Position numbers and translations under genes: made by a program
Notes under the pieces: generated by a model
Databases searched by the model: none
Seen by the model: only the letters and a program-made list of their open reading frames with translations
Told to the model about the DNA's origin: nothing
In this document: positions 9,613 to 12,772 of the stretch, piece after piece
Position numbering within the stretch: the first letter of the stretch is position 1
Layout of the letters: each line of letters opens with the position of its first letter
Sequence record: OP870147.1
Reading direction: 5' to 3' (one strand)
DNA length: 64,000 nt
From: Escherichia phage vB_Eco_F31

Positions 9613-10077
9613 TTATTTAATTTGTTTAGCAGACCAGATACGGTCTTTAATAAGTTTTTGGATATCTTCAACATACTCAAGGCTATGAGCGTGAGGATTA
9701 TCTTTGAAGCTATGTGCTCGTGCCAGTTTCTGTCCTTCTGTTTTGATTACTAAAAGCTCTTTAAGAATTGCTTCATACTTAGAAATAATTCCTTTGGCGA
9801 TATTTTTTTCTTGAGCTGCTTTAGGGTCCGCTTTTGGCGCAGGTGCTTTACCTGTAGCTTTCTGGAACAATTCACCTGATGCAGCTAGGCTTTTAAAAAC
9901 TCGGCTAACAGTATTAGCATTAGTAAAACCTTCGGCTTTAAAATCTCTAATAAAACGGAAACGTTCTTCATCAGAGGCGTCTTTGTAAGAATATTTACCT
10001 GCTTGAATTGCTGCAATCGCAGCGGCTTTTACATCTGAACTAGATTGTTCAGTCAAAAATTCAGCGTATGATTTCAT
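9613..10077 (-). CDS. internal protein-like (CTS-bearing, MKSYAEFLTE...)
   Basis: 154 aa; N-terminus matches MKxYxEFxxE capsid-targeting pattern; Lys/Ala-rich. Confidence 0.55.
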   Translation of the reverse strand: MKSYAEFLTEQSSSDVKAAAIAAIQAGKYSYKDASDEERFRFIRDFKAEGFTNANTVSRVFKSLAASGELFQKATGKAPAPKADPKAAQEKNIAKGIISKYEAILKELLVIKTEGQKLARAHSFKDNPHAHSLEYVEDIQKLIKDRIWSAKQIK

Positions 10078-10121
10078 GTTGCTTTTCCTAAATTAATTAA
10101 CTTATCTATTTATTATTATGC

Positions 10122-10149
10122 CAAAAAGCCCCAACCTTTCGGAAGGGGC
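10122..10149 (-). terminator. rho-independent terminator (GCCCC...GGGGC + U5) closing the tRNA/small-RNA transcription unit
   Basis: Stem-loop plus CTTTTTGGCATAA on the minus strand. Confidence 0.5.
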
Positions 10150-10155
10150 TATGCC

Positions 10156-10340
10156 TTGCGGCAACCTTGTCGGGGTTCCACCTGCTAAGGCAAGTGTTTG
10201 TACGAAACGCCGGGATTTGAACCCGGTTATTAAGCAGTTGACGCTACTCAATATTTTTAAAAGGCCATATCTCGACCATATCCGAACGTTCCGTCAAAAA
10301 CGCTACTCGGCTTACGGCAAAGATATTTCCTCGAATCGAT
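10156..10340 (-). ncRNA. candidate small stable RNA downstream of tRNA-Arg (cf. T4 species 1/2 RNAs); tRNA-like T-arm CCGGG-TTCAAAT-CCCGG
   Basis: Non-coding stretch between tRNA cluster and a rho-independent terminator; T-arm-like hairpin at about 10211-10227; no full cloverleaf could be drawn. Confidence 0.3.
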
Positions 10341-10637
10341 AATTCGGTGCGCCGTTTCTGCTGTGATGTAAGGGGATATTAAAAAATCGTAAAGATTTAT
10401 TAAGACCAGTCCTTACTCAGGGAACATCAGTCCGACGACTTACCGGTAGCGACCCGGCTTCTTATTTTGGCATATCATCAATTTGCTCTCGACGCCGACG
10501 CCATAGATTAATAGCTTCATTAACACATTCGGCGTTTGGTATATGACGGCAATAATATAATGATTCGCGTTTCTGGAACCGATGTTGCAACGGGATTTCG
10601 TTTAAAAGGTCTTTACGGTCAAAGTATTCAAAACTAG

Positions 10638-10805
10638 TTAACCCGGAACGGTTTTAAGAAACTTCCAATGTCCGAATTCATTTTTAAAATAAACATAATC
10701 AGCATGTTGATATAATGAATTAATTAACCTATCGGAAATAACTGTTTCACGTTCGTTAAAATAAAACGTTAAATCATGAACTACCAGATACACATTGCCT
10801 TTCAT
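10638..10805 (-). CDS. hypothetical small protein
   Basis: ORF track 10638..10853 overlaps tRNA-Arg at its 5' end; internal ATG 10805 (MKGNVYL...) avoids the overlap. Confidence 0.3.
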   Translation of the reverse strand: MKGNVYLVVHDLTFYFNERETVISDRLINSLYQHADYVYFKNEFGHWKFLKTVPG

Positions 10806-10823
10806 ATTTTCCTCACTTGAAGT

Positions 10824-10900
10824 TGGTCGAGACAGAAGGATTCTAACCTTCAACCTACGGATTAGAAGTCCGTTGCTCTATACAATTGAGCTATGCCTCG
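10824..10900 (-). tRNA. tRNA-Arg (anticodon UCU), CCA encoded
   Basis: Manual cloverleaf: acceptor CGAGGCA/TGTCTCG, D-arm GCTC-AATTGTATA-GAGC, anticodon loop CTTCTAA, T-arm GAAGG-TTAGAAT-CCTTC. Confidence 0.8.
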
Positions 10901-10903
10901 GAT

Positions 10904-10978
10904 TGGTGACCCTGGCTGGTTTCGATCCAGCTACCTATCAGTTATGAGCTGACAGCTCTCCCATTGAGCTACAGGGCC
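10904..10978 (-). tRNA. tRNA with CAU anticodon (Ile by lysidine modification, or Met), CCA encoded
   Basis: Manual cloverleaf: acceptor GGCCCTG/CAGGGTC, D-arm GCTC...GAGC, anticodon loop CTCATAA, T-arm GCTGG-ATCGAAA-CCAGC. Confidence 0.75.
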
Positions 10979-11040
10979 TTAATAACTTTCTATTATGAAA
11001 GGCACTTTAGAGCACCTTTGGTAATAGAGGGTATGAATTA

Positions 11041-11065
11041 ATAATAACACATAATTCTTAAAGCA
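11041..11065 (-). promoter_or_regulatory. putative MotA-type middle promoter upstream of tRNA cluster
   Basis: Minus strand TTTGCTTTA then 12 nt then TATTAT. Confidence 0.3.
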
Positions 11066-11573
11066 AATCAATCATTTTAACAGTCGGCAAAACGATTTCT
11101 TCTTCAATATAAGCAAATTCAACACATTCAACTACACGCAAGAAATCATAATCATAATATTCAGAAGCATGGCCAAGAATATCAATGAGACCTTCTGATA
11201 CTAAATATCCATTCTCATGGAACAGGTCAAATATACGTGATTCATCTTCTTCAGATTTATTACCGAGGTCGACTTCAATATCAAAGACCTTTTTAATGAA
11301 TTCTGGATAAAGCTGGTCTGAGAACAGTCCTTCAACCAAGTATTCATAGATTAAAAGCGAGCAATCACTGAATGGTGTATTACCACAGTAACGTTCAGCT
11401 TTAGTGCTAGAATGACGACTCTTAAATTTCTTCAAGAGATATTTAAACTGTTGGAGCTCATGCTCTTCTACACCAAATAATGTTTTGGTTTTATAGTTAT
11501 CGCCGTCATTTTCCCAAGTAGTGACATCAATTACGTAACCTTTAGGAATTGTACTGCCTAAACAAATATTCAT
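11058..11573 (-). CDS. hypothetical protein
   Basis: 171 aa ORF, ATG start. Confidence 0.55.
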   Translation of the reverse strand: MNICLGSTIPKGYVIDVTTWENDGDNYKTKTLFGVEEHELQQFKYLLKKFKSRHSSTKAERYCGNTPFSDCSLLIYEYLVEGLFSDQLYPEFIKKVFDIEVDLGNKSEEDESRIFDLFHENGYLVSEGLIDILGHASEYYDYDFLRVVECVEFAYIEEEIVLPTVKMIDLL

Positions 11574-11577
11574 TTAC

Positions 11578-11868
11578 TCACCGTACCATATTAATGTAAT
11601 TATATTCAATGCAACGTAATTTCAAAGGATTCTTGAAAATATCATATTCAAGAGGGCCTTTTTCTGTTTCAATAAAGAAATCAAAGTTAACTGTGTTAAA
11701 TTTATCGTCTTCACAGAGTAATTTAACCTGTGAAGACGAACGGTCGATATAAACCTTTTCAACCTCAAAGTTAGTCAGAATACCGTAGTCATCGACTAGT
11801 GCTTTAGCTGCACGTCGGTCGCTTTCATATCCATTCTCAATGGACGATACTTTAGCATAAAGAATCAT
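11578..11868 (-). CDS. hypothetical protein
   Basis: 96 aa ORF; ATGA overlap with upstream gene. Confidence 0.55.
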   Translation of the reverse strand: MILYAKVSSIENGYESDRRAAKALVDDYGILTNFEVEKVYIDRSSSQVKLLCEDDKFNTVNFDFFIETEKGPLEYDIFKNPLKLRCIEYNYINMVR

Positions 11869-12227
11869 GAATGTTCCACCATTTCAAAGGTATGAGCATC
11901 AACAATATGATACCAGTCAAAATTTTCTTCTGCGTTTTTATAAATTTCGCGAAGAGCTTCAACAGTTTTTCCTGTAGCAACAAGGTCGTCAATACCACCA
12001 AGAGGATAACAGTCATAACCAGCAAACAGAAGAAAATTAATAGTTTCTGTAGGTTCTGGATGCAGAACACCGTTATCGTCTACCACTTCAAAGAAAGTGT
12101 AAGAAGGAGTACAAGTTTTAATCCAAGCCCATGCTTGAGCCGCTGAATCAAATGGTCTGCGTATCAAACGACAATCAGGGTCTTTAGAAGGATTTGCTTC
12201 AAAATCAGCATATACATGATATTTCAT
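11865..12227 (-). CDS. hypothetical protein
   Basis: ORF track 11865..12245; ATG 12227 preceded by AAGGTGAG. Confidence 0.5.
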   Translation of the reverse strand: MKYHVYADFEANPSKDPDCRLIRRPFDSAAQAWAWIKTCTPSYTFFEVVDDNGVLHPEPTETINFLLFAGYDCYPLGGIDDLVATGKTVEALREIYKNAEENFDWYHIVDAHTFEMVEHS

Positions 12228-12228
12228 T

Positions 12229-12414
12229 TTACTCACCTTTTGCAATTTTATCCATAACGATAGCGATTAAGCTGATTAGAAATGCTACTACCAATGAGAT
12301 AGAGTTTTCAGTTGTTGTCAGTAGTCCACAAATGAATCCTACAAACATCGAAAAACTAAAAGCCATTGAAGCAATTACTACAGCAACATTACGAATCAGT
12401 TCAGCGCGTTTCAT
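12229..12414 (-). CDS. small membrane protein
   Basis: ORF track 12229..12435; ATG 12414 preceded by GGAGAAA; single long hydrophobic segment. Confidence 0.45.
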   Translation of the reverse strand: MKRAELIRNVAVVIASMAFSFSMFVGFICGLLTTTENSISLVVAFLISLIAIVMDKIAKGE

Positions 12415-12442
12415 TTTATTTCTCCATTTACTCATTTGTTTT

Positions 12443-12481
12443 GATAGGACTACTATAACATAGTCCTATCTGCATGTAAAC
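12443..12481 (-). promoter_or_regulatory. early promoter module (GTTTAC + -10) with perfect 9-bp inverted repeat GATAGGACT/AGTCCTATC
   Basis: Upstream of 12229..12414; module shared with 4262 and 5825. Confidence 0.5.
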
Positions 12482-12484
12482 TAC

Positions 12485-12772
12485 TTACAGAAGAGTTTTT
12501 GCAATAATTTTAAGCTGAGCTACAGAAATATGCTTAGCTTTAAACAGTGCAGTCTCTTCAGCCGGAGAGATAACAATAGTAGCGCCATCTTTCTTAGCGG
12601 ACCACCCATCCCCTAAGTAAACAGTACCTTTTACTTCTTCGCCGTCAACCAGACTAATCATTGGTTTACCCTCGCGTCCTTTATTTGCTTTAATAACTTC
12701 GGAAGTAAGGGTTGCTTCGGTCAGAGTAGAAACGTTAGCAAAAGGTGATATAAATTCTTTATAGGATTTCAT
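12485..12772 (-). CDS. internal protein-like (MKSYKEFIS...)
   Basis: 95 aa; CTS-like N-terminus; sits where ipI lies in T4 (upstream of 57B). Confidence 0.55.
   Translation of the reverse strand: MKSYKEFISPFANVSTLTEATLTSEVIKANKGREGKPMISLVDGEEVKGTVYLGDGWSAKKDGATIVISPAEETALFKAKHISVAQLKIIAKTLL

Follow-up and report, generated by a model that had tools for sequence, protein, structure and literature searches.

The best described internal proteins (Ips) of T-even phages are those of T4. The first ten residues of T4 IPIII, the capsid targeting sequence (CTS), suffice for packaging, foreign proteins included; targeting depends on residues 4 and 7 and processing on residues 8 and 10, and the prohead protease gp21 cleaves after the motif L/I-x-E (PMC9026906). 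T4 Ip1, Ip2, and Ip3 have nothing in common but the CTS, and the GmrSD type IV restriction enzyme that is inhibited differs from one to the next; it was proposed that the accessory proteins of "the two Ip loci" are directed at variants of one and the same immune system (PMC12373910). Once injected, internal proteins are active before the phage expresses any of its genes. Since all three T4 Ips inhibit different GmrSD enzymes, each new Ip is a candidate inhibitor for an unassigned defense variant. Current descriptions, to our knowledge, recognize two ip loci. Here we describe two CTS-bearing genes in a 64,000-nucleotide (nt) stretch of Escherichia phage vB_Eco_F31 (OP870147.1), called the window below, which comes from an RB69-like T-even phage of the genus Mosigvirus. 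One is a 154-amino-acid (aa) gene, p154, at an insertion slot outside the two usually cited ip loci, where such genes are not usually sought; the other is a 95-aa gene, ipI. We give a probability of roughly 70% to the reading that both encode T4-type internal proteins, bound to the scaffold via the CTS, cut by gp21, and injected, with p154 carried on a hairpin-bounded cassette.

Two genes with capsid targeting sequences

An earlier note on this DNA had claimed two CTS open reading frames (ORFs) at 9613-10077 and 12485-12772. Both are present there; what the note missed is that both lie on the minus strand. Listed below are the two genes and their parts, together with the protease and scaffold genes (↓ marks a gp21 cut).

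9613..10077, minus strand: p154, a 154-aa CTS ORF of phrog_2280; predicted mature residues 11-154, 15.9 kDa, isoelectric point (pI) 9.6
10048..10077, minus strand: p154 codons 1-10, MKSYAEFLTE, the CTS; predicted gp21 cut after E10 (LTE↓Q)
10082..10089, minus strand: Shine-Dalgarno-like AGGAAAAG of p154
12485..12772, minus strand: ipI ortholog, 95-aa precursor (T4 IpI match, IPI_T4, phrog_4363)
12716..12772, minus strand: IpI propeptide MKSYKEFISPFANVSTLTE, residues 1-19, with the CTS and the LTE↓A cleavage site
12488..12715, minus strand: mature IPI* (76 aa), residues 20-95, compared with 2JUB chain A
42184..42825, plus strand: gp21 prohead protease (Pfam Peptidase_S77, 2.8e-107), predicted to cut both propeptides
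42859-43671: gp22 scaffold (T4_CASP, 1.5e-89)

The p154 protein is Lys/Ala-rich, as the note had stated (24 A and 21 K among its 154 residues, pI 9.5 for the whole protein), and it starts MKSYAEFLTE, which keeps the CTS and processing positions Y4, F7, L8, and E10. The 95-aa protein does start MKSYKEFIS (MKSYKEFISP over ten residues), so that in both position 4 is aromatic and position 7 is Phe. The note had proposed looking for a gp21 consensus, L/I-x-E, behind the CTS. In p154 it is LTE at residues 8-10, directly after the CTS, and in the 95-aa protein LTE at residues 17-19, where the T4 processing site is kept; in each case the tripeptide ends the propeptide. The cognate protease gp21 and the scaffold gp22 are encoded in the same window as both ip genes.

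To place these N-termini among all window frames, we used a scan with the regular expression ^MK[STM][YF].[EQ]F[LI] over ATG-started frames of at least 40 aa. The pattern matches 6 of the 587 window frames and none in each of 50 shuffles. The six CTS ORFs, at ..131, 157-471, 536-796, 1275-1556, 9613-10077, and 12485-12772, are all on the minus strand; the earlier count of six was correct, with ..131 truncated at the edge of the window. L/I-x-E stands at residues 8-10 in five of the six, and ipI has the tripeptide at residues 17-19, like T4 IpI.

Homologs of p154 were found by tblastn in 511 phage records, near full length in 469 of them. Identity is about 97-100% in Mosigvirus and Dhakavirus and about 70-75% in many Tequatrovirus phages, and in Klebsiella T4-like phages the match covers the N-terminal half only. 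The gene is absent from T4, T2, and T6, which is probably why it is missing from Ip lists. Among the matches listed, every record either calls the product a hypothetical protein (e.g., RB32ORF133c) or leaves it unannotated; p154 matches phrog_2280 ("unknown function") at 1.1e-53, and a literature search on "RB32ORF133c" found no paper. No other start lies between the p154 ATG and the in-frame stop that precedes it, and a Shine-Dalgarno sequence lies 7 nt upstream of the ATG. When compared with Tequatrovirus homologs, p154 has a ratio of nonsynonymous to synonymous substitution (dN/dS) of 0.06-0.10, with synonymous sites near saturation (proportion of synonymous differences, pS, 0.62-0.72). Judged by this conservation, the p154 ORF is a real gene under purifying selection.

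In the close p154 family, M1, K2, Y4, F7, and E10 are invariant. Relatives 48-55% identical keep the aromatic residue at position 4, F7, L8, and E10, and vary at residues 3, 5, 6, and 9. Homologs from Tequatrovirus, Dhakavirus, and Klebsiella phages retain the CTS residues, as do metagenomic relatives; family N-termini read MKSYAEFLTE↓Q, MKTYNEFLTE↓Q, MKSYAQFLNE↓AVLNE↓A, MKTYNEFLNE↓SVLTE↓A, MKFKEFLAE↓A, MLKFNEFLAE↓G, and MLEYSEFLKE↓L. An AlphaFold (AF2) model of p154, with a mean predicted local distance difference test score (pLDDT) of 75, has residues 1-9 disordered, a confident three-helix domain at 13-67, a disordered K/A/P linker at 72-84, and a helical hairpin at 85-151; in the model, the disorder of the first nine residues is as would be expected of a propeptide. 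The reading of both genes as CTS-type internal protein genes, made in the earlier note, is supported, and the sequence features support p154 as a new, unannotated member of the internal-protein class. We consider it quite probable that p154 is CTS-targeted and gp21-processed.

Several observations on the p154 family stand beside these results. A second L-x-E in p154, LKE at residues 105-107 (window 9757-9765, minus strand), lies within an invariant ILKELL in the middle of the long C-terminal helix. The carefully annotated Mosigvirus record of phage ATK47 (KT184309) has a 99% identical ORF at 1717-2178 of the examined locus, with no coding sequence feature. A run of seven A residues inside p154 (A7; window 9803-9809, minus strand) is the exact point at which several database versions, e.g., that of Shigella phage SfPhi01, are frameshift-truncated; homopolymer sequencing error or real slippage could either one apply. 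There is also a 94-aa chimeric protein in which a trna.3-like N-terminal part (compare window 11865-12245) is followed by the 32 C-terminal residues of p154, and it looks like a product of recombination between accessory genes flanking the tRNA region. The family is modular as well: the CTS and the three-helix N-domain (AGKYSYKD.SDESRFQFARDM...) are retained in T4-like phages of Klebsiella, Yersinia, Serratia, and Erwinia, and the same homologs (e.g., RCIP0032, 2495-3028 of the examined locus) have another C-terminal domain after a Lys/Ala/Pro linker.

The 95-aa gene is almost certainly ipI, a gene that is already known and often annotated as such in related records. Over 95 aa, its product has 87% of residues in common with T4 IpI (E 3e-52); with RB69 ipI the identity is 98%. 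Residues 20-95 match Pfam IPI_T4 (PF11634) at 1.4e-50, with 169.6 bits against a cutoff of 25, and the protein also matches phrog_4363, "internal virion protein." The gene lies at the T4 ipI position, between trna.4 and 57B/57A/gene 1, as the note had claimed. Over its full length, 2JUB chain A aligns with residues 20-95 (E 5.8e-42, 4 differences in 76 residues), and the solved mature IPI* (2JUB) starts exactly at ATLTSE, residue 20 of the window IpI. T4 IpI reads MKTFKEFTSTTTPVSTITE↓ATLTSE (ITE19↓A) and the window ipI reads MKSYKEFISPFANVSTLTE↓ATLTSE; thus, the gp21 site that produces IPI* is conserved, and the propeptide has drifted. The enzyme that T4 IpI inhibits is the type IV restriction enzyme GmrSD of E. 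coli CT596 (PMC12373910). By analogy, the window IpI, whose mature part is 4 of 76 residues off that of T4, would be a GmrSD inhibitor as well. Its natural target enzyme may differ, since Mosigvirus DNA carries arabinosylated, not glucosyl-hydroxymethylated, cytosine. An early-type promoter, GTTTAC-N17-TACTAT, lies upstream of ipI (12807..12836, minus strand), and the 110 nt examined there have this promoter only, with no box like the late promoter TATAAATA. We considered that ipI might be unusually conserved, hinting at recent transfer, and rejected this: 87% identity to T4 is within the 57-91% range of its neighbors.

A hairpin-bounded cassette in a variable slot

On the coding strand, the cassette runs from rnaC through a hairpin, AATAAATA, the Shine-Dalgarno sequence, and the p154 ORF to a second copy of the hairpin and the early promoter of the next gene. 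Its control elements are the following.

10118..10149, minus strand: upstream copy of a 32-nt repeat, the terminator hairpin ending the tRNA/rnaD/rnaC unit (-16.0 kcal/mol, then a U run)
10107..10114, minus strand: late-promoter-like AATAAATA, 29 nt upstream of the p154 ATG
9575..9606, minus strand: downstream copy of the terminator hairpin, the right cassette boundary (-14.9 kcal/mol)
9518..9546, minus strand: early-type promoter GTTTAC-N17-TACTAT after the downstream hairpin, like a promoter-early stem-loop (PeSL) element, serving the next gene (9184-9489)

The two hairpin copies form a 32-nt direct repeat, 91% identical and 543 nt apart, and are homologous to a single T4 terminator. T4 has one hairpin, and directly behind it comes the sequence found after the second hairpin in Tequatrovirus slur03. 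Because of this single hairpin with colinear flanks, the p154 gene is an indel whose borders are the repeat copies. For T4-type cassettes, there is published evidence of recombination at conserved flanking motifs (PMC2839356).

In all homologs examined, a predicted late promoter stands before the p154 gene. Four homolog loci (Tequatrovirus slur03, Nami, and JK1 and Klebsiella phage RCIP0032) have a perfect late promoter, TATAAATA, within a few bases of the hairpin, and the Mosigvirus and Dhakavirus loci have AATAAATA at the same fixed post-terminator position. In the compilation of Geiduschek and Kassavetis, A at -13 occurs in 9 of 50 listed T4 late promoters and is the commonest variant, equal to AATAAATA (PMC2988020). 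With this arrangement, p154 may be expressed at the time when proheads are assembled.

We then surveyed the slot by scanning loci that contain the conserved rnaC 3′ end. In different T-even phages, it holds zero, one, or two CTS cassettes. The slot is empty, with a single hairpin and no ORF, in T4, T2, T6, and one IMG/VR genome. The p154 type stands alone in the window, in three other Mosigvirus/Dhakavirus records, and in several Tequatrovirus genomes; a 187-aa gene stands alone in RB69; and Nami and two IMG/VR genomes carry both in tandem. Absent from T2, T4, T6, and one IMG/VR locus, p154 is a non-essential gene in a hypervariable locus. The 187-aa protein starts MKTYAEFLTE↓AAKL and is present in 165 phage records, hypothetical among those listed. 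It matches phrog_2280 at 2.5e-53, yet pairwise BLAST with p154 matches the ten CTS residues only (9/10 identical). RB69ORF149c and ORF148c (RB69, 11429-11991 of the examined locus) are halves of one such 187-aa gene, split by a frameshift or a sequencing error; the gene is intact in Nami (1897-2460 of the examined locus), RB14, Shfl2, ime09, and about 160 other records. In one IMG/VR contig, the slot behind TATAAATA holds a third cargo, an ORF of 126 aa whose CTS is degenerate, MYTVNEFLAE (MYTVNEFLAETEIITE↓A), and whose tail is rich in Lys and Pro.

As a tentative proposal, the injected proteins of T-even phages might have a third hotspot, the slot after the tRNA/rnaC terminator, at which cassettes of late promoter, CTS cargo, and terminator move by hairpin recombination. 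The p154 protein and the 187-aa protein might then be injected defense inhibitors with folds not seen before, plausibly directed against GmrSD variants acting on glycosylated cytosine DNA. The cassette also gives a search rule: after the rnaC terminator, a late promoter followed by MK(T/S)(Y/F)xEF(L/I)xE may lead to further injected proteins.

The surroundings are those of a Mosigvirus. The 4-kb region around both genes is 95-97% identical to many Mosigvirus coliphages (such as MM02, moha, mobillu, APCEc01, and AlbertHofmann), and the match to AlbertHofmann, a close relative listed as strain Bas47, spans the whole region; JM10 is another close relative with a match here. Gene order in the window is T4-like: the ip cluster, denV, e, nudE, the e.x genes, rnaC/rnaD, tRNAs, the trna.x genes, ipI, 57B, 57A, gene 1, and gene 3. 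Other features of the window are as follows.

10201-10339, minus strand: rnaC homolog of T4 (98% identical, BLAST to T4)
10346-10465, minus strand: rnaD homolog of T4 (88% identical, BLAST to T4)
10824-10900, minus strand: tRNA-Arg (UCU)
10904-10978, minus strand: tRNA-Met (CAU)
1..1556, minus strand: left-end ip cluster, four CTS ORFs (..131, 157-471, 536-796, and 1275-1556) around denV (803-1228)
39952-41523: gp20 portal

The rnaC and rnaD homologs are placed between the tRNA genes and p154. That the two CTS ORFs lie on either side of the tRNA genes, as the note had it, is correct, but what it called a cluster consists of two tRNAs only; T4 has eight tRNA genes where the window has these two (10824-10978, minus strand), and segB is absent. 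An Rfam scan of the region yields two tRNAs only because Rfam has no model for rnaC or rnaD. At the left end, ORFs ..131 and 157-471 (minus strand) have likewise gone unrecognized as internal proteins; both start MKTY(Q/K)EFI(T/A)E. The ORF at 157-471 belongs to phrog_3966 ("unknown function") and is the counterpart of RB69ORF124c, and ..131 is the counterpart of RB69ORF123c.

Packaging, function, and competing explanations

According to the reading we prefer, the N-terminal CTS (MK-S-Y-x-E-F) of each precursor would bind the gp22 scaffolding core of the prohead. The protease gp21 would then cut after L-x-E, p154 after E10 to give a 144-aa basic protein and IpI after E19 to give the 76-aa IPI*. 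Mature p154 and IPI* would stay in the head and enter the host with the DNA, where p154 would neutralize a host defense acting on the incoming modified DNA, by analogy with Ip1, Ip2, and Ip3. At the DNA level, the p154 cassette would have been inserted immediately after the tRNA/rnaC terminator, and recombination between the repeated hairpins would most likely add or remove cassettes.

Yersinia phage fD1 (Tequatrovirus) encodes a 157-aa p154 homolog, g140, which is listed as phage-particle-associated at the strict threshold in liquid chromatography-tandem mass spectrometry (LC-MS/MS) of ultracentrifugation-purified virions (Table S3, PMC8309999). This shows that the homolog is made and copurifies with virions; the detection discriminates poorly. 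Packaging of p154 itself is likely.

What p154 does was approached through sequence and structure searches. There was no accepted Pfam match and none to IPI_T4, so p154 is not a member of PF11634; the Pfam family GemA was rejected as subthreshold (E 0.089, 14 bits versus a cutoff of 27). A p154 profile against PDB sequences gave low-complexity noise only (a designer PPR protein, a streptavidin tail), and large protein searches gave T-even-type relatives only (10 clusters, 8 representatives) and no characterized family. By analogy with Ip1, Ip2, and Ip3, p154 may possibly be an anti-defense effector, a suggestion we make with reserve. Mosigvirus DNA, with its arabinosylated cytosine, remains a substrate of the GmrSD-family enzyme BrxU (PMC13390438); Mosigvirus is therefore under selection of the same kind.

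A number of points weigh against this reading. The p154 promoter in the window, AATAAATA, is a putative one, a one-mismatch variant of the late box. A minority of p154 homologs read FLMTE, not a canonical L/I-x-E at residues 8-10, and L/I-x-E is itself short, with a chance expectation of about 1 per 100 residues. The slot of IMG/VR contig L014 holds, behind the same TATAAATA box, a 184-aa predicted membrane-protein gene without a CTS. Fold searches with p154 gave generic helical hairpins only and so lend no support to a specific biochemical function. The fD1 virion proteome is unspecific, since 672 host proteins were scored along with 113 of the 277 phage proteins, DenV, NudE, and lysozyme e among them, and g140 detection therefore adds little. 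Finally, none of six tryptic peptides of the Klebsiella-phage homolog appears in the supplement text of a Jiaodavirus virion proteome from cesium chloride-purified particles, from phages that may lack the gene.

These points have to be set against what other explanations would require. A structural or DNA-organizing role was historically proposed for IPIII and the basic Ips, and p154 could be packaged via its CTS but serve core assembly or neutralize or organize DNA. Mature p154 is basic (pI 9.6, 26 K+R versus 18 D+E), its disordered Lys/Ala/Pro-rich linker KATGKAPAPKADPKAAQEK resembles DNA-binding tails, no fold ties it to any inhibitor, and IPIII mutants show head-assembly aberrations (PMC9026906). 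However, p154 cannot be needed for head assembly, since T2, T4, T6, and some other relatives lack it. In the slot, another gene, alike in the CTS only by pairwise BLAST, takes its place or stands beside it, and this pattern of presence, absence, and cargo replacement matches that of the anti-defense ip hotspots (PMC12373910). All three T4 Ips, which are also basic, proved to be specific GmrSD inhibitors (PMC12373910). We therefore regard a structural role as unlikely. Packaging as such would be in doubt if the CTS-like N-terminus were hitchhiking or vestigial, a recombination linker or initiation region on a protein that acts late in the infected cell and is not meaningfully packaged. The first 30 nt encode 9/10 identical residues in slot genes that otherwise do not align, which could reflect DNA-level homogenization, and recombination at conserved flanking motifs is known for T4-type cassettes (PMC2839356); moreover, packaging, cleavage at E10, and injection of p154 are what we infer. 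But at the protein level the residues for targeting and processing are conserved despite saturated synonymous sites (pS 0.62-0.72), with residues 3, 5, 6, and 9 varying, and the late promoter is conserved. Because the 10-residue T4 CTS suffices for foreign proteins (PMC9026906), any late-expressed protein with the p154 N-terminus should be packaged, and because the same slot can carry a CTS-less gene (L014), the locus does not impose the motif. A vestigial CTS is in our view quite improbable.

That p154 might be no real gene, or have its true start elsewhere so that the CTS is not N-terminal, could be argued from the ATK47 record, complete and yet without annotation of this ORF, and from the database versions truncated at the A7 run. 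Against this, the ORF is near full length in 469 of 511 records at a dN/dS of 0.06-0.10, its ATG is the first after an in-frame stop and has the Shine-Dalgarno sequence 7 nt upstream, and peptides of the fD1 homolog were detected by LC-MS/MS. Conservation and peptide evidence effectively refute this explanation.

Comparison with described internal proteins and PeSL cassettes

The window IpI is close to its T4 counterpart (PF11634, PDB 2JUB). The two have in common 72 of 76 mature residues, the cleavage site L/I-T-E↓ATLTSE, length, and 57B adjacency, and differ in the propeptide, at 8 of 19 positions. T4 IpI and p154 have the CTS alone in common.

For p154, the nearest described proteins are T4 IPII and IPIII, T2 ipIV, ip5, and ip7, and T6 Ip5 and Ip6. 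Like p154, they have a 10-residue CTS followed by cleavage at L/I-x-E, before A in theirs and before Q in p154: known Ip N-termini read MKTYQEFIAE↓A, MKTYQEFITE↓A, and MKTFKEFINE↓A, compared with MKSYAEFLTE↓Q. T4 IPII/IPIII and the Ip4-Ip7 series are also small, basic, non-essential, and located in hypervariable regions. Beyond the CTS, the p154 body has no detectable similarity to the T4 Ips or to the GenBank sequences of T2 ipIV, ip5, and ip7 and T6 Ip5 and Ip6. Identity of p154 with T2 IpIV, which is 157 aa long like the fD1 homolog, was rejected, as the two have the CTS alone in common. The location differs as well: the genes of the T4, T2, and T6 Ips lie in two recognized ip loci, one on the e/denV side and the other on the 57B side, whereas p154 directly follows the rnaC terminator. 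Closer in this respect are RB69ORF149c/148c, RB14ncORF136c, and the Nami 187-aa protein, which have the slot, cassette architecture, CTS, and PHROG of p154 and are often adjacent to a p154 homolog. They differ in having no pairwise BLAST similarity to p154 past the CTS, in being 187 aa long, and in being absent from the window.

The closest model for the cassette itself is the PeSL cassette (Arbiol et al. 2010, PMC2839356), a transcriptionally self-contained unit in which a single ORF is bracketed by GGGG...CCCC stem-loop terminators, with indel breakpoints in the repeats. The p154 locus has the same plan: an accessory ORF between repeated stem-loops, presence/absence polymorphism, and breakpoints in the repeats. 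The difference is in the promoter. PeSL cassettes have a sigma-70 early promoter; the element upstream of p154 has a late (gp55-type) box of the TATAAATA kind and not a strong sigma-70-like early promoter, and an early promoter follows the downstream hairpin only. Since its internal promoter is late and an early promoter comes only after the downstream hairpin, the p154 cassette would work like a PeSL cassette, but a non-canonical one.

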